NCBI GenBank assembly: GCA_008632985.1
Contig: QPGO01000023.1
Location: 62,001 to 126,000 of the forward strand
Length of the DNA stretch: 64,000 nucleotides
Direction of reading: 5' to 3'
Source of the DNA: Psammoneis japonica
Lineage: Eukaryota
Every line of letters begins with the position of its first letter. Positions within the stretch are counted from its first letter, which is position 1. The notes below the pieces were generated by a model. That model did not search any database and was not told the origin of the DNA. It saw only the letters and a program-made list of their open reading frames with translations. Of the stretch, positions 5,839-52,688 are shown piece by piece. The position numbers were made by a program, and so were the translations under genes.

Positions 5839-6227
5839 TGTAGCAAACCGGTACAGTAGGGCTTCAGATTGTTGCTTATTGGTTAGGGTATTGTTGCTTT
5901 TGGTCCTCTTTCTACTCTCTACTCTAGAGAGCTAGAGGTAGACTTGCGATCCAAATGGATCGATCTGTAGCGCCGCTTCTCATATTTCTCCCTTATTCTC
6001 CCGGATCCGCGATCCGCGTTTCATACATGCTTTTTAGTGTATTTTTGCGATCGAGCCTTGAGCCTTGCGAGCGAGCGAATCATCCTCATCTTGAGAATCT
6101 TGTCTGCTGGTGGAATCCGGCTCGCCGATTCACAGGAACTCGCCTCTTTTGGGGCCTCACCCAGATTCGAATCGGAGACTGGCTCGAGATGTGGTGCCCT
6201 TTGTCGTCTGCCTCTGCTGCCTTTTTA

Positions 6228-7799: not shown

Positions 7800-8139
7800 T
7801 AGCGCTGCACTGGCTCTTGGGCAAAGATTGCCCAGACTCGCTTCTCAAAAGTGTGGTGGTTGCCTTCATTCCTACCTGTAGGGTTGCCATCTTGTAGCGG
7901 CCACTGCCTTCCAGGCAGCGGTGAGGCACAAAAAATCTTGTAACGCACGACATCGATCGACAGTCAAAGACAATCCGTCCGCCGTCCGCAGAGTGAGAGC
8001 CGAGAGCCGATGCGGGATACGGTATGTGACAAAGAATTAAAAATAAAGAATAAATTGATGGGGTATCATAATCATACTGTAGTTACTCTCTTGAGCAGGA
8101 AAAGGCTTCTTCTTTCGACAAGTAAGCAACGCCACTCCC

Positions 8140-22960: not shown

Positions 22961-23691
22961 CTGTAGCTACTAGAAGTATGTTTTTTTTCTTCTTACAGTT
23001 TCTGCGGACGAAGTGGAAACGTTCCATGCATCAAACATACCATTGAGAAACCCATAGAAAGGAGCCATCACGCTGACAGCTTTCAACAAACACTGGACAC
23101 GACGATGATATCCACGGAGCTTACCATTGCCTATCTTCAAAGTTGGATTTTATGGTAGCCCTGCGGTCCCGCCAAAAAAATGGAAATCGTGATTGCCGTC
23201 GCGTTTTCTGCAGTGAGGGTTCGCATCGTGATATATGGTTGATGCCTGATTGATAATTTATGGGGGCCTGTGCTGCCGTCAATTCGCGATCAAAATTTGC
23301 CATAGCGAGAACCGAACGGTAACGCTTGTTTTCTTCGAAATTTCCCCGTTGACGATGCTCCATTGACTTATGATCAATCTGTTGCCGTGTCGACAGAACT
23401 ATTTCGTAAGGTCGTCGTAACTTGAACCTTCAACTGTATAGAAATCAGGCGGACAAACCAGAAGAGATTTTCTTGAAGAGCTGATTGCTTTTTGACATTG
23501 CCGGTTCTACACCATGCTCCACATCGTCTCCATTACATCGGGTGTATCGGTAACGATCCTCGTTTGGCGGGTAAATCGTGTCGTTGCCGTCATCACTGTG
23601 AAACATGAGCGATATTTCTGAACGAAGCCAGAGTCGTGTGAAGGATTGCACTCTACCCCATGCATGAGAAACCAGTGAGCGCAATGCTGTT

Positions 23692-25023
23692 TTAGCTGTA
23701 AGTTTCCCAAAGATAATGATTCATGCATTCCGCCGGTGATACCATTAGGTTGGATCGAGAATGTGCTTCGCCGCCACATTGTTTCTGAAGATCCTCAGCA
23801 ACTCGACTCCTCGGCCGTAAAAAGAAGGGTGCGCTCGTTCTAGGACTGCTATTCTTGTGAGAATGAACAACCACCCGATGTACAGCTGCGGGGATCTCTC
23901 CATTTGTGAGAATCTCAAGCCACTTGCCAGCCATGACAACTACATACCGAGAGTTATCCTTGTCGAGCGCATGAGCAGTTTCTTCTGGGCGAATCCATGC
24001 CTGATCCAATGAGCTCCATACTTCTAGCCCCGAGACTGCAGCCACAGGGACTATTGTAACTAGTGTCCAATCAGTATGGCTTCGGAGCGTCTCTGTTACA
24101 TTATATGGACCACTCAGGTACTGACATAGTCGATGGACCGAACAACTCCACGGCGTGTCGTCAACTCCAAAGTCATCGTCGCTTTGACTCCCACTGTCAA
24201 TGATGGTGTCTAGCATTCTCTCTGTTCTGTCTTTGCTCTTTGTATATAAAGGTAACACTGCATGAACAGTGCTTGTCGCAACATTCAACAACAGATCAAA
24301 AGCACGTTCAGCTGCCCTCGCGCCGTCCTCACCCAGAACGGCTACAAGTGACGAATCCTTTTCGTCCCCCGCAAGAGATAAGGATGCATCTCGTCGTCGC
24401 ATGGACGTCTCAATATAATGGTATCCGGTTTTCTTTTTACCCGGCTGGTTCTCCCGAGCAAGAATCTGCCTTCGAATCCAAGATTTCGTGCTCTCGTCAT
24501 GATCATCAGACGAAAATGAAATGCTGTGGAAGCATCTGGACCACATCTTCGCCATAATGGTTTCTCCACCTGATTGATTACTTTTTCCGAGGTCAAAAAT
24601 GATGTATCCTCCATTTTCCTGTAGACACTTTGCAAGTGCTGCGCACTGATCGCTCTCGTGATGGATGGTTGCTTGTTGAATCGCTTCCAACGTGACTACT
24701 GCGGTTCTTCTCAGGCAATCTTCACTCACAGTCAAGCCCTTATCACCAAGAGCACTCGATTGTTGCGACTCGATTATTCTTTGTTGCACCGAGTTTTCAA
24801 ATTGTCCAAAAATGGATCGCTGCTGCTGTGCCTGCAACGTTGTGGTGCTGATCTTTGGATAGCAACACGTTATTGCAAACGAAGATTGAAAGGCCGATAC
24901 TTGACCAACAAAATAGCATACGCGGATTAAAATTATAGGTGAGCACAGAAGGAGCAAGTGGTTAGCCATCGGCGTAGTTAATCTCCTACAACTTGTGCTA
25001 CCGTATATGCGATGCATGCTCAT
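23692..25023 (-). CDS. 2-oxoglutarate/Fe(II)-dependent oxygenase (IPNS-like family)
   Basis: HTD iron motif (LRSHTDWTLVT), GKWLEILTNG...AAVHRVV and RTSAPFFLRP (RxS); N-terminal signal/transit-like segment. Confidence 0.88.
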   Translation of the reverse strand: MSMHRIYGSTSCRRLTTPMANHLLLLCSPIILIRVCYFVGQVSAFQSSFAITCCYPKISTTTLQAQQQRSIFGQFENSVQQRIIESQQSSALGDKGLTVSEDCLRRTAVVTLEAIQQATIHHESDQCAALAKCLQENGGYIIFDLGKSNQSGGETIMAKMWSRCFHSISFSSDDHDESTKSWIRRQILARENQPGKKKTGYHYIETSMRRRDASLSLAGDEKDSSLVAVLGEDGARAAERAFDLLLNVATSTVHAVLPLYTKSKDRTERMLDTIIDSGSQSDDDFGVDDTPWSCSVHRLCQYLSGPYNVTETLRSHTDWTLVTIVPVAAVSGLEVWSSLDQAWIRPEETAHALDKDNSRYVVVMAGKWLEILTNGEIPAAVHRVVVHSHKNSSPRTSAPFFLRPRSRVAEDLQKQCGGEAHSRSNLMVSPAECMNHYLWETYS

Positions 25024-26280: not shown

Positions 26281-26837
26281 TTCGACGGCAGAATGCCATT
26301 TGGGAGGAGTGAACTGCTCAACGCCTCCCGCTCCCGCCGCCTACTTGCACACTTGCGTCGCTAAAAACTTGAACTCAAAATTCGAAAACTGAAAAAACTG
26401 CCTCAACGGAAGCACATCATTGAATTATATTCAAATCCGTATGATAATTTCTTCGGCATCGGTGTGAGGAGGGCAGACGGCCACGACCAAAATTTGAGCG
26501 AGCAGAAAACAGACTGCCAATTCGCGAAGGCGCAAGACGTCGCACACAAAGATCCATCCATCGCAAAACATCCACTCACGGCATCGGCAACCATCACGCA
26601 AAATCCCTGCTGTTGATTTCCAGCTCTGGCAGAGAGGCATGGTCGTCAGCAATGATGATGTCTGGGCAATCTCCAGCAGCAAGATCACATGCCAGGCAGG
26701 ACAGCAGCACATCAACAAGCGCGACGCCAGAGCGACAAAGGAAACCATCAGAACAACAGACCTCAGAGAGAGAAACCTGCTCAGCTGTCTGGGTCTGGCT
26801 GTCATCCACAGAGCTCATGTGCTGACACCCTGCCCTG

Positions 26838-27248
26838 GATGTGCTCCAGCTCCAGGTGGGACCTCGCACACCACCACTGCATTGTGACATCAACAGTTTT
26901 TTGGATCGCACGTCGTGCACGCACACATTTCTGCGTGTGACATTCTATGAAATTGTTTCATGCTCCCTGTTTTGCAAAGCCAAAGGCTTTTTATTTTCAA
27001 CATTTGTGAGAATGAAAATGTGCTGGGTGCATTCTTTAATGTCTGTGCAGAACATGCCCGGGCAAACTGTTGTTTGTGGTGTGCTTTTCAAGCATGAATC
27101 AGGAGATGCGTTCATGAAATTGCCACTTTTTCTGTTGGCAATCATTTGTGTTTTCATTGCAGGATGAATTCACTGCAGATCTTGCATGCAGAATTCTGTG
27201 GGCCCAGTGTCACATCGAGCCCCACCTGCCTGGGACTGGAAACCCGTC
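26838..27248 (-). mobile_element. ~410-bp non-autonomous TIR element, copy A (heavily TpA/CpG converted; inverted relative to copies B and C)
   Basis: Reverse complement aligns along its length with 44183..44578. Termini GATGTGCTCCAG...CTGGAAACCCGTC. CCTG precedes it and recurs after two extra C. Confidence 0.75.
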
Positions 27249-29459
27249 CCCCTGATCTGCAGTGTCTGTCTCCAGAAAGAGCGCAGACACACAAAAAAGA
27301 GTGTGTGTGGCAGGTCACAAAGAACAAAGAAGAGACAAGCTTGCCAGCCAGCAGAAAGATGGCAAACCAGGCAATGCAACAAATGGTCAGGTCCAACATG
27401 AAAAGAGCCATGCAGGGCAATGTCATGTCTCCAAAAACTCTCCAATGGCAGTGGGGCAAGAGTGTGCTGATGCCCCAAAGGAGCAGTCTTTCTTCAAACA
27501 AACAGACAAGCTGCACGCAGCAGCTTCTGACAACCCCCATTGTGGGTTAACCAAGTCTTGGGCCAAAGAACAACTCTCTCAACTGATGGACAATCAAAGT
27601 CAAAGAGGCACGTTGCAATGTTGCTGAATCTTGTTGGGCAAAGTGAGGCTGAATGGAGACCCACCATGGCAGAAGATGCATCAAAAAAGAGAAGCAAGAC
27701 AGCAGTCTGCTGCTCTTCTCAGGACAAACCAACACCTCTGCTGCACATGGCTTGACCTCTGAAATGCGTGCCAAACAAGGAAGGTGCACCGCGGGAAACA
27801 AATCAATGTTGGAAAAATGTGGGCACATCGTGGCAGACATGTGTTGGACACCCCCCCCCCCCCCCCCCCTGTTGCTTGGTCACCAAGTGGGACATCTTGG
27901 AACAGCCCTGCATGCTCTCACTGGGCTTTTTGCACACTTCCTCTTCTTGCACACTGCCCCCTCTTCATCACCCTGATCCTTCCCACCCCTGACCAACAGC
28001 TGCATCAGCAATGCCCCGTGGGTTGAGAGCAGCGCTGCCAGAGGCACAGCATGACAGAATGGTGACTGCTGCCCCACTTCTCTGTGCTGGCCTTTTGTTC
28101 AAATGAGAGAAGTGAAGGCAGTTTGCCAAGCCAAAAATCCCAAAGCAGTGGACATGGCTGCAAGTGTCTTTCCACAGCACTGCAGAGGTGGCAAGCAGCA
28201 AAGATGATACAACCTTGCCAACAGAGCATGATGGCTGTCCATGGGGTGAGTGTGAGGGCCACTTTGTGTGGAACAGTGCAGCACTGGCCAGAAACAGAAA
28301 ATTTTCAAGAAGAAATCTGGAGTGACATTGCAGTCAACACCAGGGGAAAACACCAACCACTGCATGTGGCTTGTTGTTTGCAGGTGCCACAGCATGCGCA
28401 TCAGCATTCCTTGCCTGGGGTCAGCAGCAGATGTGGCTGGGAACAGGAGGGTGCCCAGCAACTTGGGCTCTGCAAACATGTTGGAGCTCAAAAAAGAAGT
28501 CAAGGATGAGAGAAAAACAAAGGAGCTGCCACAACATTTGTGTGGAGATGCACATCTCCAATGACCATTCTTAACTTCAGGAACATGACTGTCAGCAGCA
28601 AAGCCACTGGACATGCGAGCAGGGTCAAACATGGGTTCTTCAAGCATGCTTCTTCTGGAACTCAAACAAGAGATCACAGGTGAAGCAGAAGGCAAAGCAG
28701 CTGTCTTGGTGCTTGTTGGAGTGGTGCTCACAAGATCCTTCTGTGGGTGAGTTGACACCCAACACACCATCAACTTGGGCCACTTCATTTGTGGCAGAAA
28801 TTGCTGCACACCCAAATCTGGGCACAGCTTGACTCTTGATTTGACACTTGTTTGGCAGAGGCTTGAGTTTCAACTCCCAGCAGGATCTGCTGTTCACTTG
28901 ACATTTGCAAACAACAGAAACTGCTTCAAAATCAATGGCAACAGACTTGCTCCAAACTTGGAGAGTGCATTTGAGAAAAACAAGCAACACAGCAGAGTCT
29001 GCAAAAGCTTTGGACTTTCCTTTCATTGTTTTGGTGCCTTTCTTTAATTTGGTGCACTTGCATCAAGAGCAAGATTGTCAATGCATGGATGCCCCACAGC
29101 AACAACTGATGTCAGAGTTGAAGGAGCAGGAGCAACACACTGGCGTGCAAAGGATCAGCCAGGAAACTTTTGTTGCTCAAAACTCTCTGATGACAACTGA
29201 GCACAGAAAATCCAAAAAAAAGGCAGAGGCAACCAGCACCAAAACATCCCAGTGGCGCACATCAACAAATGGCCTTGGGGCATGACACCACAGCGAATGC
29301 CGAAGTGCTGTGGTGGAGAAGCATTTGGGCCGCCTGCTGCCCTCATTCACAACAGCTGCTGCTCTCCCTGTGTTTGATCGCTTTTGCTGGGGTCAAGAAT
29401 GAGTCATTCTTTGTTTTCCTGGAGACACTTTGCTGATGCTGTGTGCTGGCCATGCAGCA

Positions 29460-29690
29460 GTTGCAGAGCGATGGCTGCTTTTGTTGAGAGCTGCTTCTGC
29501 GCGGCAAAAGCGAGCTCCCGCGAGAGCTCTTCTCTCTTTTGGGGGGCAATCATCATCATCACTCACTGTCAAGCCCTTGTCATCAAGAGCACTTGATTGC
29601 TGAGACTTGAACATTCTTTGTTACACTGAGTTTTCAAATTGCTCAAAAACGGGGTGCTGCTGTTGCTGCCCCTGCAGCGCTGCAACTGCG
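29460..29690 (-). pseudogene. Duplicated fragment of the 5' part of the neighbouring 2OG oxygenase gene
   Basis: Encodes ...FEQFENSV*QRMFKSQQSSALDDKGLTVS versus FGQFENSVQQRIIESQQSSALGDKGLTVS at ~24720-24850. Confidence 0.85.
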
Positions 29691-29741
29691 GCTCAGCTTG
29701 GCTGGCCCTGGTCTTTGTGCTGTTTTGGAGAGCAACGTGGT

Positions 29742-30131
29742 GACGCGTTCCAGCCGTAGGTGGGACTCCGTGTGACATTGGACCCGTAGAATTCTACGTG
29801 CGAGCTCCGTAGTACGAGAATTTAATTAATGGATATATTTATCTTCAACATCAAATAAACGGCCAAGTTTGTGGTACAATTATGCCTCTCACCACTCGAC
29901 TTTTTTGCAAATACGCCTGCCCTACGCGATTCTTAAGACATTATAGAATCGCGCTATAACAAAAAATGTCAAAAGTTGTTGGACGGATCGCTCAATAAGT
30001 GTACCGTAAAATGACACAAAATATCGAAAAAATCACGTAGAAATCTACGTGCGCGACATACGACGTGATTCAAAAAACTATCGATGTCACAGTTCAGTAG
30101 TACGAGGTCCCACCTAGACCTGGAACACGTC
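29742..30131 (+). mobile_element. 390-bp non-autonomous TIR element, copy B (TpA intact)
   Basis: Imperfect TIRs GACGCGTTCCAGCCGTAGGTGGGAC / GTCCCACCTAGACCTGGAACACGTC; 4-bp TSD TGGT (29738-41, 30132-35). Confidence 0.85.
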
Positions 30132-34380: not shown

Positions 34381-35290
34381 CTACAGGTTAGATTTCATTC
34401 TTGGCCTTGTAGTATCTGTAATGTATTCCTTTGCATTTTGAAAGGTATTGCCGTCACCCACAGCTTCCAAGTAATGCGCCAGTCCCAACTGCCGTTCGCG
34501 TTGCAATCCATGTGCTAGATCCATGGCGCCGCCTTCTTCAATCGCTCGTTTGTACCGTTTTACCATGGTGGCGTTGTTCTGTCCAATCCGATCTGCAATC
34601 TCCAAAGCACGGTCTACAACATTTCCAGAGGTGACTTCGTCCAGCAAACCCCATTCTAATGCTAGTTTTGATGGGATGGGCATGGCCGAGAGAGACGCTA
34701 ACTTTGCTCGACCTGGCCCTACACGACGTTGCAGCTTCTGCGACAAACCCCAACACGGTGCGAGGGCAAACTTGACGTGTGTATCGCGAAACTTGGTTGT
34801 TTCGTCTCCGACAAGAATATCACAAGCCAAGGCCAACTCAAAACCTCCCGTTATACACTGACAGTAGTGAAATTACAAAAGTTGGTTGGAATAAGCACCG
34901 GTATACCATCACAGCTTTACAACAAGACGTGGCACTTACGTGACCTTGAATCGCTCCAATCAGCGGTACTGAAAGACGACTCATTTGATAAACTGGATTG
35001 TTGATCAGGTCTTTTGGTAAGTCACTGGATTGATCTAATGCGTTCGGTGGGTTTTCCAGATCTGCACCAGCACAAAACGATCTCCCTTCTCCCGTCAAAA
35101 TCACGGCAACCACATTATTTTCTGCATCATCCATCAACACCAACTCGGAAACAAGTCTCGACAACAATTCGCAAACTTGAGTATTGAAACAGTTCAAACG
35201 ATCGGGACGATTCAACGATAGAATAACTGCATCTCCACCCGACTTGGGAAGACGGACGCGTTTCGACAAGACAAGTGCTGACGACGCCAT
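34381..35290 (-). CDS. Enoyl-CoA hydratase/isomerase (crotonase) family protein
   Basis: LNRPDRLN, LTGEGRSFCAGADL and GHCITGGFELALACDI motifs; intron 34858..34939. Confidence 0.92.
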
Positions 35291-37069
35291 GGCGTTCAGT
35301 GCTTTTTTCTCTTCCAACACACACCATGGGATGCCCGCGCGTTCCATGCGCGCAAAGGCCAATTTTCACGAGGTCGATTTTATCTGACGCCACGTCCAAA
35401 CCACAACAAACAAGAACAGCGCGTTACGGTCCTTTTACAGCAAGAACCTTGTGGACGAATTGCTGCACAGTTGCCAGAAGGAGCTTTCTTTCGAAACCGC
35501 AATGGCAAATATCCTCTCGAAAATGCAGAGGTGGGTCGAAAGCTCTTTGTCGGTGGTGTGGCGTCAAGAGTTTGTGTGACGCGTGTCCTGCCGCATTGGG
35601 AGCATCAATGTGGATGATCACCCCGCCGTGATGAAGGCTCTACAAGACGATGCTCAGATGGAGACGGTAAGCGACGAGGGTGTCAAAGACGCTGTCCAAA
35701 AGGGACAAGCTGCACGGCTCATTGTTTGAACGAAGGACTCGGCCGTGAGTGAGGTGAGTGCAGCGATGTTGGCCCATGAAGAGGATGCTGGAGTGCCGAT
35801 GTTGGGTCACGTGGCCATTTCTCGCATGGCAAAGTCTACAAATAGCTTCTTTTCTGCAGCTGCGGCAGTCAGCTTCATGAAGGCTTGTCCCAACGAGGCA
35901 GCCGTAAAAGACAAGGCGCGCAAAACGCTCAAGTCCTTGGCAGGAGCTGACGAACAGCGAGAAGTTTCCTCTGTGGCGCTCGGCGCAGTTGCCGCATTGT
36001 CGATGCAATGCAAGCACACGTGACTGATCCGCAACACAGAAAGAGGCATGCGGAGGCTTTGCTGGAAGTGTTTCTGGTGGTGGGGTGGATCGTGCCACGA
36101 GTGTGGGGGTTGACAGCGGGCTCACCGTCGTTGTCAATGCCATTGAGTTCGTGCAGAGGTGTTTGGCGTTGAAGCACATGACGGGCTGTCCGCGAGCCGA
36201 CAAACCCGACATTCTAACTTCTCAATCAGAGCCTGCTGCTGCTTGCCACCAAGAACAAGTTTCCAAAGTCTTGCGGCCTGACTGTGGCTGTGTTGCACAC
36301 TGGGCCAAAAGGAAAGAAATGTGTGCATTGAATTGCGGAACACAATGCATGTTGCAAGACATTGGGGCACTCAAGAGAAATTGCCAAGCTTCTTTCAACA
36401 CACACTGTCAAATCTGTCAAGCAATGGCAACCATGGCGGGTGCTTGACGGCAAGCTCTCTCATCAAACTGTCTCATCAACTTGCTCTGAACATGACTGGT
36501 GTGGGTTGAATGGGTGCTCATCTGCCGCGGTTGCGAAAGGTTGAATGCTGAGTGCAATCTGCTTGTAAGTTCACGTTTGGTCGTGATGGGTTTCTCTTCA
36601 AATGCGCAACATGGAAGCTGAGCTGCAAGTTGGTGGCTGCTTCCACTGAACTCTTGCATGCCTGGCTAATGTGGTTGGTCTGTCTGCACCGCCAGGGATG
36701 ACGAAGGGCGGCTTCACCGACTCCTGCCCTCAAACATCTTGCTGGCATGGGAGACGATGCAGGGGCTCTCAATTGACACGTCGACAAAGGGCGCCTCCAC
36801 CACCACACCTGGGCCTCATCCATGGTGGTGTTGTCGACGTGGCAAGGGCTCTCGAACACCTCGCCCGTGGCGGGATCACACACTTTCACCATGGGACGAT
36901 CCTGATTTACTTTGGGGGGCAACTGACCACAGTTGACAAAGGGCGTTGTCACTGCTTGGGCCTCGTGCATCTTGCATGGTTCGCTCCGATCATTGCGTCG
37001 AGGGATGTCAAACAATTTGCCGGTCGCACGAACTCTGGTGGTCATCAGAGAATGCTCTGCCTCTCTGGG

Positions 37070-38400
37070 AGGCTGACTGCTGTTGGGCACGCAGCAGAAC
37101 CGAGTTTTGACAAAGCCCGGCTTCATCACCTGAGCCTTGTGGATTCTGCAGCCTTTGCCGTCAGCAAGTGAGATTTTGAAATGGACGTCGCTGCCGGGTT
37201 TTGCGAACGCTGTTTCCACATGAGCCATGGCAACTGGCATGTTGGGACAGGGGCTGAACGCGGCCAACATTGCTTGACCTGCAATGACGCTTCCCGTGGC
37301 ATCGAGCATTTCTGTGCGCTCTTCTGGGACCTCAGTCATGCATGCAATGCCAACGAGCTTTCGTGCCACCTTCTGAAGCCTGCAATCTTTTGTGAGGATG
37401 CTGTCTGCACCCAAGAATCCACCCTCTTGGCGTCGGCGATGTGGGGTGGTCCAGCCCAAGCTAGCCTCAACAGGGCCTGCTGATTCACCCAGCTCCTTGC
37501 CCTTCGCACAGAGGCCTGCCTCAAGGCTGAGGGTGTTCAAAGCTGTCAAGCTTCCTGGCATCATGCCAGAGTCTTCCAAGAGCTTGGATGCAGTCAAGAC
37601 AGCTGATTCGACAGCAGGAATGTGAAGCTCAAAGCCATCCTTGCCTGTGAAGCCACAGCCATGAGACGAAAGACAATGGAGTTAGTTCGCAAGTGGTGTT
37701 GTCATGCACAAATGACATGGCAGGCACCAATGTTGTGTCCTGTCCTTGCCGAGCAACGCGACAAGCTTCCGTGCTGCCACGGACAACAGTTTTTTTGCTG
37801 GACATGAATGCCATGTGTTCCAAGTTGAAGTCCGATGGAAGCAGCTTCGCCATTGCAGAGGGCAAGCCAGGACCTTGCAGGGCCAAGATGGAGTGGTGAA
37901 AGCACTCCATCTCAACTTGGCCGCCAAACATTTCCAACTGCTTGTTGAAATGCTCTTTGCATCGGGCATGAGCAGTCATGACAAAGCAATCTCCGACATT
38001 TGTGATGATTGCATCGTCGATGATCCCGCCCGTTTCATTCATCATGACGGACAGGATGCACATGCTGTGTTCAAGAGAGGCAATGTCTCCCACAAGAATT
38101 CTCTCCAGGAACTCAACACAGTCTTTTCCACGCCAAGACATCTGTTGTTGAAGAACAATTGTTTTAGAGAAAAAAACACAAGTTGTGTTCAATGCGAGAA
38201 CCGCTTTGTAACTTTGCATCACGCTGGAGACATGAACACACCTGAATGAGAAAAGACAGATCAAAGAGAGCTGCTTTTCCTTCGGAGCGGCAATGAAGGT
38301 GTTCCTGGGTGGGTTGATCAAGGTCATCACCAACAGACTTTCCCACTGGCTTGGATGCAGGAAGGCTTCATTTACTTCAAACAACATTGTTCTGATTTTT
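37070..38400 (-). pseudogene. gcvT: Glycine cleavage system T protein (aminomethyltransferase) pseudogene, intron-containing
   Basis: EHLHCRSEGKAALFDLS, NETGGIIDDAII, LALQGP, LSLEAGLC, FLGAD, PVAMAHVET and FVKTRFCCVP. Frameshifted; GT-AG intron at about 38142..38241. Confidence 0.85.
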
Positions 38401-39402
38401 GTTTTGGCTTGTGTGCAAAAAGAATTCATGAGTGGTTGATGAAATCTTCGGGTGCGTAGATGAGTGAGGGGCCGGGAAGATGCTTCACGGAAGTGTTTGA
38501 AAGCATCTCAGATGATTCCCTTAACTTTGGTGAACAATTCAAGCAGATCAACATTTGTGCGCTGGGAGAACAGATGTCGCAACATGACAAGGGAAGAAAT
38601 GGTTCGGTTCAAGTGGCTCCTGGCAATGGCAGATCCCATCAAAGTGCAGCTTTCATCGATTCTCTTTTTCTTTCCTCACTCCTCTTATGATGCATCCTCA
38701 TTTGAAGCATGGCATGAACCTGCAACAGACTTGCCTTGTTGGACTCGACATGAAGCTTGAGGGTAACATCGGATGTGACGGAGCACTTCAGCTGGCATGC
38801 TGCTGCAACAAGGACATGCGGGTGTCCTTTCTCGATGCATGTGACAGCTTTGAGTCATGCTCATGCTTTCGGGCCTTGACATGTCTTGAAAAAAGAACTT
38901 CTGAAAAGGAATCGCTCAAGAGACGGAGATGTCACGCTTTCTTTGCATGGGTGGGACTCTACAGAGAGCCATGACAATGCTGTGGCCGCACCATCGTCAA
39001 CATGGACCAGCAATTGATGACCTTGTAAATGCACAGCTCCTCCTTCTTGCACATCTCCATTCATGTTCATCTGCTCAAAACAACAGAAATTAAAATCTGA
39101 AAAAAAAGAGTGTGAGTTGTGAAGCACAACTCAGCGAGTGGATCAATGTGAACGAACGACACAAACAGATCTTCAAACGCTGTGGGACGTGGAGAACACA
39201 GCTGACACAACGGGCCGGCGACCCACAGGAGCATCAAACCTGTGGGGGATCAGATGTGAGATGCTCAATGAGCAACTCAAGCGGTCTGAACCACCTTGCA
39301 ACCTTCACAAAAAAGGCTGCCCTTCGGGGTTGTCAAGCACACCGTCTTGGTCCACAACGTCCACAGGCATTCAGAGTGCATTCAAAAAGAAAGCAGAGGC
39401 TG

Positions 39403-39780
39403 TGCACTGTGCTTGAAGAACGAGTGCAAACAAAAGTAGAATGAAGTTCAAAAAGTGAAAATTGTGAGAATTGTTTCTGCACAATCATTTTGGATTTCTC
39501 CGAATGGGTTCTCATTGGCCCAAACCTTTTGCACTGCTCCCACAGACAAAGGCCTTTCGGAGAAATCAATCATGACAACAGATTGTCCGGATGAAATTGA
39601 TGTTGACACGCAAGATGTCAACATCATTGTACAGTCACATTTGCGATTCTCGACATCCGATCAACTCTGTGTGATTGATCTGTCCTTCATGCGAACCCAC
39701 GATTGACACACGATTGGAGTGTAAATTTGTTTGACATGTGGACGTGCATGTGCACAACGCACACAACAATGCACATTGCA
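39403..39780 (-). repeat. 3' LTR
   Basis: Aligns with 44600..44978; adjacent to the PPT. Confidence 0.92.
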
Positions 39781-39806
39781 TTCGCCTCCCCAATTGCACA
39801 TTAGAG

Positions 39807-42800
39807 TCAGTCGTCAAACGGCATTGTCCGACGAACATTGACAGCGTCAATGACGTCACCGCGTTTGATCTGTGCTGTGCCATTGGCGTGTGCCGTTGTC
39901 ATCACATGCGGTCCAATGTGGGGCTGTTCCAGTTTCTGTGAGTCCTTTTCGAGCAGCATTTTCTCTCCTGCTCTGCACGCACAAGGAGTGCGTCGAGTGT
40001 TCTCTCGAGCATTGTTTTTGTTTGTGATTTCTTGTTTTTGCTGCCGGATTGATTTCCAGTCTGCGACATGTTGGACGTTAAATGTCATGTCCCTGTTGAA
40101 AACCAATTGCCCAGGTGCAGCTTGTGTGGCAGTGTGACACATGGAATGCACAGCAAAAGCCGCTGCTGACAATGTTCCAGTGAAGGGATCCTCAGTGTCC
40201 AGAGGTGTGTGTTGCAAATCAAGCGTGCGGATCACATTTCCGAGTGCTTGATGTGCGCATTCAACAATTGCATTTGCTTGTGGATTTCGTGTGGTTGCAG
40301 GCTTGACTTCAATGCCACAATCCTCTTGCACCATGTCTTTAAATTGGTGTCCGATGAACTCACTTCCACGGTCACATGCAATTGACGATGGCCAAGGATG
40401 TCTGCCCAACCATGTTCGTTCTAATGATCCGGCTGCAGTTGTGGATTCCTTGTTTGGGATTTCCACAACTTCAAAACCATCCGGTTGCCGGATCAATCAT
40501 TGTCAAACATTTCAGGACTGGGGGTTCTTTCTCTCCCTTGCAACGCATCTTGCACGGCCCAATGAGATCCACACACAGTCATTCCCATGGCGCTGATTCT
40601 GCGCACTTGGGAGGTAAATGTCCACATTTCTTGTGTTTCTTTTTGAATTTCTGGCATGTCTCACATCTCAACACGCATTTTTGCATGTCTTCACGCAAGG
40701 TGGACCACCACAGGTGTTGTGAGATTGTCTCTTCTGTTCGACCCATGCCAGGGTGAAGAAGGTGCGCATGACACCAATCTGTCACTGCTTTTTGCAACGT
40801 CTTGGGGACAACGATTTTTTCCTTGTGACATGTGAGCAACCGGTCTCGCTCGCCTCCATGAAAAGTCTTCGTGTGAAATGTCTCATTTGACAATTTGGAG
40901 AGAATGTCTTCACCCCGCTTTTGTTCACAATCAAGAACTTTACAATTTAATGGAAAGACATTGTCACAGGATTTTGGTGGGACCTTCTCAGCTGACTCTT
41001 CTGTGCTGAGGGTTTCCACAGGTTCTTTTTTTTTTCATGGTGAGTCGGCTGATCGCATCTGCAACAACATTTGCCTTGCCCTCAAGGTGTGTCATTTCAG
41101 GACTGCACTCTTCCATTGTCAGATGCCAATGCATGACTCTGTTTGTTGTGAAAATTTCATGTGTGAGATTTTTGTGATCCATGCGTGTGTTTGTCTGTTG
41201 GCCAAACAGCACATTTCGGAACTCCTTTAACGTCTCCACTGTGGACAACAGCTCTTTTTCTGTTGCAGCACAATGTGTCTGCACTCCATTCAGCTCGCGG
41301 CTGTAGAAGGCAATTGGTCAGTTCTTCTGTGTAACAACCGCCCCCAGTTGAGAATTGCTTGCATCAGCGTGCATCTCAAAGGGTGTGTTGAAATTCAGAC
41401 ATGACAATGATGTGTCTTTGGAAATTTTGCGCTTCACATTTTCGAAGGCTTTTTGTTCTGTTTTGGTCCATTGCCACCTTGCTTGTGTTGAAGTGAGTTT
41501 GGCAAAGGAGCTAAAACATGAGATTGTCGAGGCCACATGTCTCGACAGCAGTTGATCACACCGACAAAGCGACGCAATTCCTTGCGAGTTTCAGGAGTTG
41601 CGATTGCGTGAATCGCTTCTGCCTTTTTTGGAATTGGACTGATGCCATTGCGAGTGATGTGGAAGCCCAGATAGTCTGCTTCGGGTTTAGCGAAAAAAGA
41701 CTTTTCGGCATTGACCTTCAATCCGGCTTGTTCTGGGCGTAAAAACACCGTCTCAAGCTTCTTGAGGTGGTCTTGAAAATCACCTTTTGCAAGGCACAAC
41801 ACATCATCAATGCAAGTTCTGATGAACTCCAGACCTGCCATGAGCTCATTCATGTGCTCTTGGAAAATGTCTGGAGCTCCACAGATTCCCACAGGGAGTC
41901 TACAGCACTCATGCTTGCCCCAAGGCATGACAATTGTGCACAAACGACGTGCACGCGGCGTTGGCTCGACATGGTGGCATCCCACATTTAAATCTGGGGA
42001 CGTTGCACACATGAAACCTTCAAGTTTCTGTGGCACATCCTGAACACTGGGCAGAGGAAACGGAGTGTGTGTCAACCTCTTGTTTGGCTCACGAAAGTCA
42101 GGTGGAAATCAAACTCGACCATTTTTCTTGGGTTGAACAAAGGTTGGAGCGGCCCATTCAGAGCAATTTGTTTTTCTTAAGACCTTTAACTTGCACAGTC
42201 TTTCAACCTCTTTACAAGCAGTCACCTCCAAGGCTTGTGGTGCGGGAAATGGTTTGGCATGATGCGGACTCATGCCCAATTTCAACTTCAAATCCACCGG
42301 CTTCCGGTCCATTTGCCTGGAGAACCATCAAAAAGGTTTTCAAATCTTTTTAAAAGGAAGTTCAGCTGCTTCTGCTCTTCAGGAGTTAGATGAGCAGCTG
42401 CTGCTGTCACATCATTGAGGTTTGCGGCGTGACAGCCTGAATCAAGGATCCGATTGACCCTGTCATTAAGACTGATCACTGCATGAGATTCCTCAATGTG
42501 ATCGGCAATCAACTTAAAAACATCGGCATCGAAGAGTGCACCAACATTCTTCATGGGAGCAGTTGCATCTTCCCATTTGATCTCTTCACTCGAGAAGTCT
42601 GACATTGTCCCAAGACTCGACATTGAGTCATGTCCCATGATCATGTCACAACGACTCGAAGAAGAAGAGGAGTTGTCAACATGTGCCGTTGTTTCGATCA
42701 TCTTGTGTTTGTCAAATTTGGGCAAGGAGAGTTGGATTTTACATTGACTGTCAGTCGTAAAGAGCCCTCCTTTGGTTTCCCAGAGTTTGGTGGCGGACAC

Positions 42801-43010
42801 CTTGGTTCTGAGTTTTCACGTGAATTTGCGCAAAATTGTGGTTGACGATGTTCCGCTGTCGAGGAGAACACGCAGAGGCTCATTTTTCGCTTTGCCCAGG
42901 GAGGCATTCATGTGAGCAACGACAACTGGACTAGTGTGAGTCATCTTGGCCCTTTTTCCGGGCTTCCCAATGTCCAGCAGTGCGCAAGACTCTCTTGCGG
43001 TGCAAGTCAT
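39807..43010 (-). pseudogene. pol: pol (protease, RT, RNase H, integrase), broken by frameshifts and stops
   Basis: VLLDSGTS (PR); SEWAAPTF, FPLP and RTCIDD (RT); DASNSQLGAV and TEKELL (RH); HPGMGRT, CETCQK, DRGSEF and NPQANAIVE (IN). Confidence 0.92.
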
Positions 43011-44163
43011 TCCTCAGAATCGCTGCGCGTCAATTTTTCAAACTGACAATTCTCCTCGTCAAGGGTGTCAGAGTCACAATCTTTGCTCTTGCACTTTTTG
43101 TTGTTGTTCGAAGAACTCGCCTTGAGTGATTTTTGAACTGCTTGGACTGCCGTGGCATTCAACTCTTCTTTGCGAGTGGCGTTGTCGTTATCGCGACGAG
43201 ACCACGTGCGATTGCCATTTGAACGGCACCGTTTTGGGTCGGGTTCACAGTTCCCACGGCGTTCTTTTGCAAGTCTTTTAATCGACCAGCACTTGTCCGC
43301 ATTGTGAGTGGATTTTTCGCACAGAATGCACCACTTGTCGGACTGAGATTTTTCGGTGCCATGTTGGTGACCATTTTTGGAACCACGTTGGGAACCACTC
43401 TTGGCTTTCGATCCAGCACTGCTGCTGGGATCAGCCTTGGCATGAATGCCGTCAAATGCATCCTCAGCGACCTCTGGGCGCTCCAAAAACTCCACCAACT
43501 CGTCACAGGTGTGTTTCAAAATTTCGAAACCCTGGACGGTCGACTGGCGCTGCCACTTTCGAGGTGCAAGATTGAAGAGGATGTCCTTGAGCTCGTCCTC
43601 CTCGATCTTCTGATCCTTTCCAAAGGGAGGACAGAACTTGAGGTCTTCGTTGACTTCCTGGACCCAAGCAGCAATCTCGCATGCTTTCATTGACTCGGGC
43701 TTCTTGAGATCGCGACGTAGATGACGTTTCTGAACCGAAAGTGCGTTCTCAGGAAACACGTGTTTCGTGAGGTGCTGCAGGCATTTCTCGAAGCTTCCTT
43801 CTGTAGATTCGTCTTCAACATTCGCCGCTGCATTCTCAAAAGCACGTAGAGCTTCTCCTTGTGGCAACACATGCATGAGACGGAACTCATCGGCTTGCTT
43901 GCTGATGTTCTGGCCCACCAGAAGTTGACCGTAGCTCTTTAAAAATTCGATGTGCTTGGGAACGCCCTGTTTCTTGCAGTGCTTGACGTTGATCGTGTGG
44001 GTCCAACCATCCTTCTTCTCAGGATGAAAACACTGCTCCATCTTGAGACACTGGCTTGGTTTGAGGCTCTTTGGCTCGGAATTCGATTCCAACGGTTGAG
44101 GGACGATTCTTTCCTGCCTTGACGAAGTCTTGGCCTTGGTTGCCTGAGGTGTGAAAGCTTCAT
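43007..44163 (-). pseudogene. gag: gag of the Gypsy element
   Basis: VFPENALSVQKRHLRR..KKP, DELKDIL...P.KWQ and a CILCEKSTHNADKC zinc knuckle. The upstream part of ORF 43007..44407 merely runs through the inserted TIR element. Confidence 0.85.
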
Positions 44164-44182
44164 CTTGAACTGGTTGCCTTCT

Positions 44183-44578
44183 GACGGGTTCCAGCCCCAG
44201 GTGGGACTTTTTGTGACGTTGGGCCCGCAGAATTCTGCGTGCGAGCTCCGCAGTAAAATTGTTGAGCAATGGATGCATGAATGATCGCCAACAGAAAAAG
44301 AGGCAATTTTGCGAACGCATCTCCTCTTCCACACTTGAAGTGCATTCTTTACAGCATGCCCGGGTGTGTTCTTTAGACATTAAAGAATGTGCCCAGTGCA
44401 TTTTCATTGACTTGAGTGCAGATGACAGAAAGCCTTTGGCTTCGCAAAACAGGGAGTGTGGAACAATTTTTTATAATGGAACACGTGGAAATGTGCGTGC
44501 GAAACATGCGACGGATGACAAAAAATGATTGTGTCACAGTTCAACAGTGCGAGGTCCCACCTAGAGCTGGAACACGTC
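44183..44578 (+). mobile_element. 396-bp non-autonomous TIR element, copy C, nested in the Gypsy 5' leader
   Basis: TIRs GACGGGTTCCAGCCCCAGGTGGGAC / GTCCCACCTAGAGCTGGAACACGTC; 4-bp TSD TTCT (44179-82, 44579-82). Confidence 0.88.
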
Positions 44579-44599
44579 TTCTGTGGTGTGCATGCACAA

Positions 44600-44978
44600 T
44601 GCACTGTGCTCAAAGAACGAGTGCAAACGAAAGCAGAGCAAAGTTCAAAAAGTGAAAATTGTGAGAATTGTTTCTGTGCAATCATTTTGGATTTCTCCGA
44701 ACGGGTTCTCAATGGCCCAAACCTTTTGCACTGCTCCTGCAGACAAAAGGCCTTTCGGAGAAATCGATCGTGACAACAGATTGTCCGGATGCGATTGACG
44801 TTGACACGTGAGATGTCAACATCATTGCACAGTCGCATTTGCGATTCTCGACATCCGATCAACTCTGTGTGATTGATCTGTCCTTCGCACGAACCCACGA
44901 TTGACACACGACTGGAGCACAGATTTGTTCAATGTGCAGATGTGCACACATGTGACGCACATGACAACGCATGTTGCA
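44600..44978 (-). repeat. 5' LTR
   Basis: Aligns with 39403..39780. Confidence 0.92.
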
Positions 44979-45662
44979 GCTGGCCCTCATGTGGCTCCTC
45001 CTGCTCAAACAACTGCTTCACTAAAAAGTGCGTTGGTTGGCACCGGGTCACTGCCGCATTGGACATTTGCAAGCATTCAGTGCACATGCAAGAAGCGAGT
45101 TTGCTGGCAATCGTGGTGCATCTCCATCGGAACCACGGACCACTTTGACAGGCAATCGTCATTTCGCCTCGAACCGACTTCCAAAGACACACGCAATCAA
45201 ACGCACAGAGGAAAACCGTCAAGGACCCAAGCCTTCAGGTCCACATGGCAATTGTGTGCGGACGACATTCAATGGCTCAACTCCAGCAGATCTAATTCTC
45301 AACGAGAACGAGACGATCGACTCACCTGTGGCAGAGTTGTGATGCAACCATGGCAACAAAGACAACGATGTGTTTCAAACGGTCGAATGGTGATTTGTGT
45401 GCTTCGTCAACAATGAGCAAAGTGATTCGGATTTCACGTGTCCCGGTCTGCCGTTTCAAAATTTTTGAAAATGTGGCGGGAAACCAACGGTGTTTTTCAC
45501 TATCGCATTTTGCGTGCTTGTACGAACACCGATGACGTCGGCCAAATTCGTCAGAGTACGAGCTCCGAACTCTAAGATTTCCCTCCCTCCACCATCACAC
45601 CTCGCCACAAAATAAAACGCGATACAGTAGATCAAAGGCAATCACTTTATTTCTTCTCCATC

Positions 45663-46773
45663 ATGGTATCACGGCAGCGCAGCAAGTTGAATGTGCGTGA
45701 CAGCAGCAGCATGTTGCCATTAAAGTGTATCGTTCTCAGTGTGCTGTCCCTTGTGCATGTTAGCACTGGCTTTCTGCTTTCATCGCGAAGCACCCTCCGG
45801 ACGGGAATGCCAGAATGCTCATCCTTAACACATTGCATGACATTGAGCAAAAACAAAAAGAACACGGCGGGAGAGCAGAACTTGAATTCAAAGATTCGGT
45901 TAGAGAATGGACGCCAGAAGACAGTTCGTGCTCGTACGGTGCAACTGGCGCCAAACGGTGAATGGAATGTGACAGTATTTGAATGGGAGGAAATGGCTGA
46001 CACTGTGACAGCCTTTTGGAACGTACAGAATGCCAATGCGCTGACACCTGCACCTCAAAGCAATCATAACGATTTGCTTGATCCGTTTGGATTGGTATCA
46101 TGGCCCGGGTCTGTTGTTGCCGCTCAGGAACTTGCGCGCTACAAAGATACCATTAAGAATTCCACTGTCTTGGTCGTTGGTGCCGGGCCAGGGGTGGAAG
46201 CTCAGGCGGTGGCAATGTTGGGTGCAAAGCAAGTTATTGCTACTGACATTCATCCCACGACATTGAAATTGCTAGAGCTTGGTGCAGAAGCTGCTGGACT
46301 AGACCATATCATTACTACACAAGGTATGATTATTCGATTTGGTCTCGCTGGATAGAGGGAGCCTATATGAAAGAAGTATGCCGCATCTAACCATATCAAT
46401 TCTCTTACTATTATGCCTCTTTCTCGAACAAGTCTTTGACTTGCTCTCAGACGAATCGTTGCCACAATGTGACATTATGGTTGTTGCTGATGTCATGTAC
46501 AATGAGCATTTGGCGCAAGCGGGTGTAGGTCGTCGAATAAAAGAGGCATTGAAGCAGACAAACTCGCCGAGGATATTGGTTTCGGACTCGCAACGCTTTC
46601 ATGGCACAGATTTTTTACCAGTGCTCAATCATATATTTGACGACAAACTCGCATGGAAAGAACGAAAGCTAAAGGGATTTACTGGATCGGGCGTCATGAT
46701 TGACGAGGATCAAACATATGATGTAACTGTAAGGACGTGTGCTATTGGGTGGGAGAGTGCTGAAGAACAATGA
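45663..46773 (+). CDS. SAM-dependent methyltransferase, family-16-like protein methyltransferase, with N-terminal targeting peptide
   Basis: DPFGLVSWPGSVVAAQEL, VLVVGAGPG, ATD and VADVMY motifs; intron about 46324..46431. Confidence 0.85.
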
Positions 46774-49843: not shown

Positions 49844-51419
49844 TCTTGTGTCAGCTTGTGTGTGTGTTGCCTAAGCTACTGTGAGAGCTGATACAAAATG
49901 ACAGTATTATATTTCGGTAAGAGAGAAAGGAGTTGCAACAACAACCACAAAAAAATATCATGAAAGATCGCAACACAGAAAATGCTGAAATGACTACGTT
50001 CTACTATGCGTGTGCTGTGTGCGTGCGGCTTGTGCGGTGTGTGCGGCCCGTGATGAGAGACGACACATCGCCTTATTGAGCCAATGCCTGAAGATGCACA
50101 ACATTTTACACAATGGAAAGCAACTTCAAAAGATGAGCTTTTGTCCGTTGTCCTCAGAGACACAGGACAACGTGGCATGATCTCTGACCCAAAAGTCATG
50201 CCCTTCACCCATGCAGGTTTGCTGACAAAGCAAGGAAAGTTCTCATGTTTTGGCGTCAAGACAGAGCTGCAACCACCGGCGCTTTCATCCTGCCAGAGCT
50301 GACAGCACAATGGTGAGGAGAGCATGGAGAATCCGGCAAATCTTCCTTTTGGCTTGATCTCATCAAAATGCCTCAGCAACACTGTGGCAAATGACTTTCC
50401 AACTGAAGCTGCATTTCAGCCCCCTCCTGCTCAACAACAAAGCAAGACTGCTCTCTCCTTTGCTGCTTGCCACATGGCCACAGCATCATTCCAGAACAAA
50501 GCACATTTGTTGGTGGCCCAGACAGCAAACCCACAAACAGAGATCTTGATTTCTGTGGGAGTGGCAGCAAGCTGTGGTGTCTGGAGCTGCTTTTGTGTGG
50601 AGACACATGTCATGGCTGATTTTGATGTGAGCACAACGGCTGCAAGCACCAAGAAGAAAGAGTTGCACCATGAAAGACCATCTGGCTGTCAACTGCCATG
50701 GACCAAAAAAAGTTGCAGGTGCAAGAATTAAAATCTGTGAGCTGTGCTGGCCACATTGTGGGAGGCTGCAAAACTGCAAAATGTGCTTGTGCCAAATTTG
50801 CTGAAAGACCAATGTTCCAGAGCTGAGGCTGCAATGTCCAGCAGCCACCTCTCTTTGAGACATTTCAGCCAATCCAATCTCAAATGAAATTTGACATGAC
50901 TCCACTGGCACATGGAGGCAGGAAGAAGCTTGTTGGGTGTGGATTCAAGTGAGAGCAGAGTGCGCGTCCAATTTGCAAAAGGCGCAGACATCTTTGGGCG
51001 TTTTTGTTTTGAGCACAGCATGTGTTCTGAGGGAGCTTGTTTTGCTGTTTCTGCTTGTGATCAGGTTGCTTGTCTGTCCCACCCTCTCATTCATGGTGTT
51101 CTACCTGCATGTGCTTTTGGTGTGTGGGCAGATGCATTGGCGCACATCTCCTGTTTCTGTTGTCTCCTTCTTGCATTTCTGGCTCCTTTGTCCTTTTCAG
51201 TTTTCAGCCATTTGTGCATGGCACACAAAGTCTGAGCTGCAGTGCATTGAAGAGCTTGCCACACATCATTGAAGACATCCAAAAATGCCTGGATGACCTG
51301 GCTCATTGCAGTTTGACTTGCTTTGAAATTTGGTTGCGTGTGCCCAGTGACCCACTGCAGTGCTCATCATTTCATCACCATTGTGGGGACAGCCATGTCT
51401 CATGATCAACACCAGCTCT

Positions 51420-51880
51420 TGAGAAGGCCACAGTGTTGTGTGGAATGTGAGCAAGGACAGAAGATGGAGCTGTGTTTTTAATCTGCTCTTGGCTTGCTTG
51501 GAGGAGGGAAAGCATTGCAGGGTCCCTGCTGAATGGCTCTGGAGAATGGTTTGACTGGCAACGAAGTGACGAAAAAGCTTGACATGCTTGATGCTGTCAG
51601 AGAAGAATGACTTGAGCAGGTTGGAGTTGTGTGGGATGTGTTGGAAAATCAGAGCCTGCTTGTGCTCCTGCAGACACTTCTCAGTGAGCACAACTCGAAG
51701 AGGCTGGAGTTCTTTTGAACAACTCAAGGAGCACAGTGGACATTGCACAGTGCCCAGCAAACACGCCAAGGACCAAAAAACCCAGGAATTGGCTGGACAA
51801 TCAATGGCAAGCTGGTGGGTCTGGGGATCATGCAAAGGTGGTTGCATGGATTGAATGCTGGGTCTCAACGTTGTTTGCCC
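51420..51880 (+). pseudogene. Helicase-associated (HA) repeat domain pseudogene
   Basis: VWNVSKDRRWSCVFNLL...HCRVP, LDAVREE*LEQVGVVWDV and FEQLKEHSGHCTVPSKHAKD match HA repeats, with Y->C/H and CGA->TGA changes. Confidence 0.7.
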
Positions 51881-52688
51881 AAAAAGCAGTCTCCACCACT
51901 GCCAGTTGGTGTTGACAGTCTTCTGCGATGACACTCTTGGTGTCATCTTGTCAATGTCAATGAAAGAATGAACCACATGACACATGGCATTGAATGTTTC
52001 TCCAGCCATTGTTTGGCTTTTTGACTCCACCAATCACCAGCTCATGACCATGTTTTTATGACACGTTGGCTCCATTTCCTCTTGCACCATCTGGCCTGAG
52101 ACATCAAGCTTGGTCAACTCAACTTTCAATGGCTGGCATCTTTTTAATGGTGCATGCAGTGACTGCCAGGTGTTGGCAATGTCTTTGTTGCAAGCAGTCT
52201 CCACTGTGAGACAGTGGCTGTTGAGTGTCTGTTGTGGTGGCACAAGAGTGAAATGTTGCACAGCTTGCTGCTGTTTGCCATTTGCCACTTGCTTCGAATT
52301 TAAGTTGAAGCACCAATGTCTGCATTGCACAGTGTGCTCCTCTTGAGAACAACAGCTGGCTGCAGTGTCTGACAAGAATGGAGAGAACAGAGACCATGGG
52401 AAGCTCCACAGCTTCCCAGCCAAACAAGATCTGGAGTGGCTGGCAAAAAGAGAGCAGCTCTGTTTGCTCCTTGCCTTGTTCCAAGCTCATTTCCAAGAGC
52501 ACACTGTGACAATGCTTTCTCACACTGCTGCTGCAAAGAAGCCAAAACAACAATGACAACAACAACAACAACTGCACAAGTGTGCCAAGAGGCAAGAAAC
52601 ACCCCCAAGACGACCCACCTGAATGCCCCACATTGGGGCACATTCTGGCAGCCAAAGCAAGGCTCACAAACCCACAGAAAAAGGAGAG

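Follow-up and report, generated by a model that had tools for sequence, protein, structure and literature searches.

Loss of TpA dinucleotides from a gcvT-like pseudogene and its surroundings beside a Gypsy retrotransposon of the diatom Psammoneis japonica

The stretch analysed here (the window) comprises 64,000 nucleotides of the Psammoneis japonica genome, positions 62001-126000 of contig QPGO01000023.1 (C19 below) in the 91-Mb assembly GCA_008632985.1. It carries a pseudogene related to gcvT, the gene of the glycine cleavage T protein, in a 10.3-kb block from which the dinucleotide TpA has almost disappeared, one of five sharply bounded TpA-poor blocks within the window. The block extends from a decayed copy of an ankyrin/ARM-repeat gene (the ARM copy) through the right arm of a dispersed repeat of about 1.5 kb. 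A Gypsy-type long terminal repeat (LTR) retrotransposon sits inside this repeat, of which another copy, L097, has the empty site; its LTRs (39403-39780 and 44600-44978) are 87% alike (Table 1). Four copies of the gcvT-like gene exist in the genome: W (the window copy), B (C19:542k), C (C9:494k) and D (C19:558k). B (C19:542-544k) lies about 440 kb from W and is 90% identical to it. A segment of about 3.1 kb including both the ARM gene and the gcvT-like gene was duplicated as a unit from C19:540.6-543.8k.

W extends from an ATG at 38387 to the position matching the stop codon of its paralog (36643-36645). Its translation matches the Pfam profile GCV_T twice above the cut-off (E 1.7e-18 and 5e-13) and GCV_T_C just below it (E 1.2e-5; 25.5 bits for a cut-off of 25.9), and the C-terminal extension carries DPATGE-type repeats. 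B has an intact frame across three exons and 11 TpA in the 189 bases of its introns. In W the frame is neither intact nor spliceable: exon 1 contains a 2-base insertion, the acceptor of intron 2 is lost and the stop codon TAG has become TGG at 36645. Changes at TpA account for the altered donors of both introns, for the lost acceptor of intron 2 and for the loss of the stop codon. The first-pass annotation had described a frameshifted gene with one retained intron, and thus a DNA-level copy. The latter holds; there are however two introns, the frame change in mid-gene is one of them, and the real 2-base insertions lie near 38361 (exon 1) and near 36811. The insertion at 38361 replaces an ancestral TA by TGCA, that is, by both usual outcomes of the TpA change side by side, a single case which may be due to chance. 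Contigs of run X1 match the assembly without difference over 38087-38595 and 38570-38913; as this run may come from the source sample, the agreement is a check of the letters and not independent biology. Run X2 is labelled 'DNA?' yet skips introns, and so looks RNA-derived. It covers 0.42 of the sequence words of the B locus and leaves most of W uncovered, and was not used as expression evidence.

Table 1. Features of the TpA-poor block and of the genes on either side (window coordinates)
Feature	Position	Strand	Basis and remarks
gcvT-like pseudogene W	36643-38387	-	Paralog alignment, Pfam, subfamily alignment
Exons of W	38242-38387, 37750-38141, 36643-37658	-	Paralog alignment
Intron 1 of W	38142-38241	-	Donor GTATGT changed to GTGTGT; position shared with housekeeping gcvT
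Intron 2 of W	37659-37749	-	Donor GT>GC and acceptor TAG>TGG, each a transition at TpA
TpA-erased block	35225-45500		Segmentation; TpA observed/expected 0.11, CpG 0.72; 70 TpA against 660 expected
Decayed ankyrin/ARM-repeat gene copy	35401-36309	+	Alignment; Pfam matches of the source gene below curated cut-offs
Left arm of the dispersed repeat (about 1.5 kb)	38566-39402		34 of 39 TpA of copy L095 are TG or CA here
Gypsy-type LTR retrotransposon	39403-44978	-	TG...CA ends, 4-base target duplication, decayed reverse transcriptase and integrase
Right arm of the 1.5-kb repeat	44979-45603		Weaker damage; 3-4 of 14-20 TpA kept
Enoyl-CoA hydratase gene, TpA-normal	34381-35291	-	Pfam ECH_1; 5' end at the left block edge
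Methyltransferase-like frame, TpA-normal	45576-46355	+	Weak Pfam PrmA match (E 2.5e-4, below cut-off); at the right block edge

Positions 37,070-38,400 contain 5 TpA for 79.8 expected from base composition, while flanking gene DNA has 108 for 175 and 166 for 289. With B and C, both TpA-normal, taken as references, W has lost 27 of the 28 TpA that they share (14 to TG, 10 to CA and 3 to other dinucleotides). Among columns with conserved neighbours, A>G is seen at 14 of 31 TpA and at 12 of 365 other sites (Fisher p 7e-11). AA and CpA are well retained (83/95 and 86/90). CpG decays as well: it became TG or CA at 21 of 63 sites with the same references, and CpG>TpG/CpA changes number 37/107 in W against 5/71 in the reverse direction (p 1e-5). 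TpA disappears about eight times as fast as CpG. The signature announced in the first-pass annotation is therefore real, its expectation of an excess at TpA among the differences from a functional paralog is borne out, and that paralog, B, is intact and untouched. Its two examples fared unequally. All five tyrosine codons of B read Cys, Cys, His, Cys and Cys in W, among them the His of AMAHVET (TAT>CAT at 37222) and the first Cys of RFCCVP (TAC>TGC at 37096), both as claimed; the second Cys of RFCCVP was an Arg (CGC>TGC) and results from a CpG change. Moreover AMGYV and YY, taken there as typical of the family, belong to the housekeeping gcvT, while the direct paralogs read AMAYV and RFYR.

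The base following TpA influences the outcome. In 27 pooled alignments A was changed in 152/293 TAC, 95/211 TAT, 57/174 TAG and 43/190 TAA trinucleotides (TAY against TAR, where Y is a pyrimidine and R a purine, p 1e-10), and the best survivors inside blocks are TTAA and CTAA/TTAG. At the protein level, seven erased frames of 151-487 amino acids contain 0-1 Tyr, for a median of 3.75% Tyr in 120 relatives. These relatives, all Gypsy pol sequences, include no Tyr-poor member (lowest 2.85%). The search, which favours long intact frames, thus gave no hint of the process in any other organism. Loss of TAA and TAG yields long tyrosine-free frames rich in Cys and His that can be mistaken for genes, and TpA sites skew the dating of repeats.

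The four copies W, B, C and D make up a diverged gcvT-like subfamily with a repeat tail. Like the GcvT aminomethyltransferase, they have both domains (PF01571 and PF08669), and their two introns sit where those of the housekeeping gene do. They differ from it by the absence of the N-terminal targeting part and by the motifs GFTGEDGFE and xLxALxTLRLEAG and the DPATGE-repeat tail. The housekeeping gcvT is found at C37 and C174, probably as two alleles (96% alike); it is TpA-normal and reads AMGYV and ESRYY. At about 65% identity to the W subfamily it is too distant for a site-by-site comparison, for which B at 90% is the proper reference. The top GCV_T match, at C22, was also discarded: its translation reads as a sarcosine/dimethylglycine-dehydrogenase-like protein. 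Relatives sharing the tail occur in three other records (P0121-P0123, 52-59% identity) and the best named homolog is from Phaeodactylum. The subfamily (window 36643-38387; L006:1973-3800; P0121-P0123) apparently has no name and seems to be kept in those other records. It is an old, retained duplicate of gcvT. B and C, its two TpA-normal members, are under purifying selection (dN/dS 0.18 by approximate counting), although C bears a one-base frameshift in the assembly letters. A general constraint on evolution by gene duplication, as proposed in the first-pass annotation, is thus not supported. D is erased like W, and some of its sites were resolved to the opposite product (TG for CA or the reverse).

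Damage is graded along the block. Within the ARM copy, TpA is kept at 5/17 sites in the half far from the Gypsy element and 0/10 in the near half; from the far half onward to the start of the gcvT-like gene 4/60 are kept, against the 5/17 (p 0.02). W has lost 31-39% of its CpG, the left repeat arm 28-35%, and the 3' LTR 8/21 when compared with the 5' LTR. The ARM copy has no CpG excess (5/24, against 9/26 in reverse) and lost its TpA nonetheless. Divergence outside TpA and CpG is 4/292 (1.4%) between the LTRs and 46/1107 (4.2%) between W and B (p 0.02). The LTRs differ at 12 sites that are TG in one and CA in the other, at 12 other TpA or CpG sites and at 6 further sites. The first of these classes indicates mutation after insertion. 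On the simplest reading of these small numbers, the CpG and TpA decay of W would have begun with the arrival of the Gypsy element, well after the duplication. There are hints that the process was active recently: among the differences listed between X1 contig 35224-36864 and the assembly (5 sites and 3 gaps), 2 are TpA>TG/CA at remaining TpA and 2 are at CpG/CpA, giving 5/1644 bases inside the block edge and 0/3714 in four flanking pieces (p 0.003). These few sites could be alleles or strain differences.

Both block edges coincide with gene 5' ends reached by intron-skipping X2 contigs. One contig reaches 35275 on the enoyl-CoA hydratase side, and another begins at 45720 and has a GT..AG joint at 46318-46428. 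The former is a single contig over 32801-35275 that covers convergent nitrilase and enoyl-CoA hydratase genes, whose 3' ends may overlap. A search of the genome for an allelic copy of the window flank returned none. Elsewhere in the genome, copies L095-L097 of the 1.5-kb repeat are 93-95% alike and keep 68-77 TpA each, while L098 is partly reduced (51 TpA against 72). The repeat has no long frame; by eye, the end of an X2 contig matches the TpA-normal L095, and such copies may be transcribed. In four other loci with the same Gypsy family (L099, L100, L102 and L104), TpA-rich LTR segments lie beside erased internal parts, so that damage is patchy.

A two-state segmentation of 708 of the 815 kb of C19 (4260 N included) yielded 39 blocks, which make up 36.6% of the sequence; two of them include N gaps or low-complexity DNA, and one is a low-complexity or gap stretch. 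The observed/expected ratio inside and outside blocks is 0.06 and 0.59 for TpA and 0.37 and 0.98 for CpG; inside, CpA and TpG rise to 1.73 and 1.77. One-kb windows are bimodal for TpA. Self-comparison of the segmented sequence gave 191 alignments of at least 200 bases, which overlap and are not independent events: 114 have both copies in blocks, 53 both outside, 18 one in and one out, and 6 lie on edges. TpA is retained in both copies of the 53 outside pairs and is lost on one side only in the 18 mixed pairs. For pairs at least 76% identical, a TpA of an outside copy reads TG or CA in 76% of 418 cases if the partner is in a block and in 16% of 2163 if it is outside; more distant outside pairs give 22% of 535. 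Twenty of the outside alignments are at least 400 bases long and at least 80% alike and are spared on both sides, one of them 2.4 kb long, 98% alike and 24 kb apart. A dispersed 2-kb pair at 98% keeps 83/88 TpA; in a third copy, which lies within a block, 26/34 have turned into TG or CA. Duplication alone is therefore insufficient as a trigger. Erased host pieces include gcvT-like, ARM, nitrilase, XPG, eIF5B, adaptin and thioredoxin-like sequences; targets are thus not limited to viral or foreign DNA and, as the first-pass annotation had supposed, intron-bearing host gene copies are affected as well as transposable elements (TEs). Pieces of the eIF5B-like gene of the window (55212-57838) are erased at C19:447.7-450.2k beside a high-copy repeat with one fixed end, and turn up in at least 5 other places, a case of gene capture by a mobile element.

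The best explanation of these observations, and in our view a probable one, is a mutator specific for A>G at TpA that acts on silenced chromatin by position and not by homology. W and its ARM neighbour would be a DNA-level duplicate of the intact gcvT-like locus 440 kb away, next to which a Gypsy element later inserted into the 1.5-kb repeat, 100 bases upstream of W. A silenced, CpG-methylated domain, suggested by the loss of CpG, would have spread from this seed, leftward over about 4 kb and rightward over 0.55 kb, as far as the nearest working genes, which would act as borders. Within this domain a TpA-specific process, about eight times as fast as CpG decay, would convert A:T to G:C on either strand, giving TG or CA and ruining the splice sites, tyrosines and stop codon of W. 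The target would be silent chromatin, most likely seeded here by the Gypsy element. In this account the spectrum and direction of the changes, their one-sidedness, the block structure, the nesting and the gradient are observed, and methylation, silencing, the seeding role of the Gypsy element and the bordering role of active genes are inferred. The process would finish off copies that have fallen silent and make their loss irreversible, while duplicates can persist.

Several observations weigh against this reading. W has accumulated 16 replacement and 8 silent changes outside TpA and CpG, for 9 and 18 in B (p 0.025); it seems to have been unconstrained since the split and may have been dead before the Gypsy element arrived. 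The dating leans on 4 LTR differences (95% interval 0.4-3.5%). B is spared in spite of a 15-kb erased block about 350 bases away, which means that proximity to a TE does not suffice; B is presumably protected by its expression. Some high-copy repeats have TpA-normal ends, as do some LTR segments. Pfam TE domains were found in only 4 of the 39 blocks, and host domains in 4, when 375 of 977 block frames of at least 100 amino acids were scanned (438 were chosen, of which 52 in the final batch and 11 within tandem or low-complexity sequence were omitted). Pfam is nearly blind on such frames, and for most blocks a TE seed is conjectural, although two blocks with host domains did both contain high-copy repeats on searching. 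A 2.4-kb island with a dead nitrilase gene (C36:389.9-392.4k) is erased (TpA observed/expected 0.05) between stretches of TpA-normal DNA, and searching the genome revealed no high-copy repeat inside the island (8 matches, 5 candidates), although one may be missed because this search skips very common words. It has a copy at C19:138-142k; the left flank, part of the same segmental duplication, is spared in both copies, and only at C19 does erasure include the right flank. Finally, ADAT2, the candidate enzyme discussed below, is an ordinary tRNA enzyme, and its presence in the genome therefore says little.

The only published case that we found is a preprint by Mettrop et al. (bioRxiv 10.64898/2026.01.13.699255). 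Its accessible text describes TpA>TpG/CpA hypermutation of integrated DNA of nucleocytoplasmic large DNA viruses and virophages in Bigelowiella natans, reports that a single-copy region is affected and proposes ADAT2; the process is active, with a rate raised about 1000-fold as measured in lines. In that portion of the text the words diatom, CpG and pseudogene do not occur. As far as it can be compared, the Bigelowiella process shares with ours the A:T>G:C change only at TpA, on both strands and in regional clusters, the dispensability of a second copy and a candidate of the ADAT2 class; such clusters, with TpA loss and gain of CpA and TpG, are found here in 39 blocks. The differences are that the present organism is a diatom, that 36.6% of 708 kb is affected, near saturation and including intron-bearing host gene copies, and that CpG decay, a preference for the +1 base and gene-bounded edges accompany the damage. 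The Bigelowiella rate comes from lines, whereas we have only fossil traces and a few variants. Our literature search, with most subscription papers outside its coverage, found no report of a TpA process in diatoms. CpG decay itself has a likely source, as diatom TEs carry DNMT5-dependent CG methylation (PMC9998398, in the sections available). This accounts for the CpG>TpG/CpA half of the signature and for its location in TEs and cannot make TpG or CpA from TpA, a dinucleotide absent from those sections. Overall the process resembles a heterochromatin-coupled genome defence of the Bigelowiella type; it is not RIP (repeat-induced point mutation), and it is no bar to duplication.

Recognition of paired duplicates wherever they lie, as in RIP, was the other mechanism put forward in the first-pass annotation next to spread from the Gypsy element. 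Spread within a silenced block around that element fits, while homology recognition fits poorly and is very unlikely in our estimate. In Neurospora, RIP acts on duplicated sequences at least about 400 bases long and at least 80% identical, usually in both copies, and is tied to the sexual cycle and to the RID/DNMT4 enzyme. The two processes have in common dinucleotide-specific transitions that wreck repeats, and a focus of RIP on duplicates with leakage into their flanks is documented in N. crassa (PMC7296669, in the part available). W and D are both duplicates and both erased, the left block edge at 35225 is close to the end of the duplicated segment at 35401, and blocks are rich in repeats. 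Yet RIP makes TpA, by C>T at CpA, while here TpA is removed and CpA is stable; the reach is about 4 kb; outside pairs well within RIP thresholds are spared and mixed pairs are damaged on one side. B is untouched including its introns, its TpA differences with C are symmetric (14 each way), and the main Bigelowiella target is, in the accessible text, single-copy. Homology recognition is thus largely refuted, with the reservation that the youngest duplicates might so far have escaped a process confined to a rare sexual stage. Somewhat less improbable, though still unlikely, is that the same mutator acted without a TE seed: W would have become silent by itself, by promoter loss or local rearrangement, then methylated and erased, the Gypsy element being a later passenger. 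The nitrilase island, erased with no detected repeat and with its left flank spared (28/39 TpA shared), the lack of constraint on W and the lopsidedness of the block around the Gypsy element all agree with this. Against it, W has lost as much CpG as the 3' LTR has since it inserted, though by other divergence the age of the duplication is about three times greater; damage declines away from the Gypsy element within one duplicated segment; high-copy repeats were present in both other blocks with host domains; and a repeat of the island may have been missed. Least credible of all is the absence of any targeting, TpA being mutable everywhere and retained in genes by selection or transcription-coupled repair. 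TpA is indeed below expectation outside blocks, where 72% of it is kept for 80% of ApA, and block edges meet genes. However, the bimodality of the 1-kb windows, the retention of TpA in introns of intact paralogs and in non-coding repeat copies, and the concentration of the listed X1 differences inside the block edge all speak against it.

Within the position-dependent reading, the chemistry is a separate matter. Deamination of DNA adenine by a TadA/ADAT2-like enzyme is the most likely reaction, an attribution that we hold tentatively and to which we give slightly less than an even chance. The wobble A of tRNA stands after an invariant U. The engineered TadA editors ABE3.1 and ABE8e-YA produce A>G in DNA with a YA preference, YAY being preferred to YAR (PMC12528748, in the part available), and the parallel order TAY > TAR counts toward adenine deamination. 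These editors are engineered, guided by Cas9 and accept both CA and TA, whereas CA is stable here (86/90), so the likeness is one of context and not a test of the enzyme. Other chemistry with the same targeting is possible and has a clearly smaller chance: error-prone synthesis by a polymerase eta-like enzyme during repair of deaminated 5-methylcytosine, or modification of T. TpA and CpG are lost in the same blocks, and A>G at TA and T>C on the partner strand are indistinguishable from sequence alone. On the other hand ApA is spared (76% kept in mixed pairs, 80% in outside pairs), which argues against polymerase error of the WA type, the motif of Pol eta-like polymerases; TpA loss outpaces CpG loss and occurs in the ARM copy with no CpG excess.

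An ADAT2-like gene at C26:119.8k has the HxE-PCxxC motifs together with the Asn that the Bigelowiella preprint names for the DNA-editing position. Other deaminase matches, labelled by our own reading, are a tandem dCMP deaminase, an organelle-type TadA, RibD, two small-molecule-type deaminases and two ADAT1/ADAR-domain genes. No chromatin-reader domain was found in the deaminase frames scanned. The two ADAT1/ADAR-domain genes (L127, C40:112.6-114k; L129, C79:344.2-345.9k) are distant from each other; a single one is the usual number outside animals. One of the two small-molecule-type deaminases is fused to a 2-oxoglutarate-Fe(II) oxygenase; such a fusion, with a zinc deaminase, lies at C79:87.3-88.8k (L109). 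The genome also has C5 DNA methyltransferase frames. Some C5 methyltransferase matches contain stops (L119-L121 on C301 and C297, and C10:611-617k), and L119 is itself TpA-erased. A Tet_JBP search gave no match, and neither did its control, so that the result speaks neither for nor against a T-modifying enzyme.

A deaminase, were it the cause, would be a natural editor of adenine in DNA. The preprint leaves the choice of target open; the W locus, for which an intact parent, an outgroup, an empty site and a dated LTR insertion are available, points to position in silent chromatin and not to foreignness or copy number, a question testable in diatoms with DNMT5 knockouts and transgenes. It is conceivable, although we consider it doubtful, that diatoms and chlorarachniophytes share an old and active defence that brings an endogenous TadA/ADAT-type deaminase to silenced chromatin, where it edits adenine of DNA at TAY; it would have rewritten about a third of this chromosome, would erase silent host copies and would halt at active promoters.

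The four other TpA-poor blocks of the window (1056-3067, 6041-7872, 26446-29756 and 50108-54690) have CpG observed/expected ratios of 0.17-0.35 and are therefore probably older; Pfam gave no match on their longest frames. On another contig, a block of at least 10 kb (L141, G000:C153:14001-24000; TpA observed/expected 0.10, CpG 0.71) is a mosaic of host pieces, namely adaptin, the 5' end of an enoyl-CoA hydratase gene and a copy of window 23840-24860, with long frames that have no Pfam match. At 19364-22966 the window has a frame of 1200 amino acids made of Cys-rich tandem repeats of 75 amino acids, 88% alike in DNA, whose TpA is not erased despite this tandem repetition.
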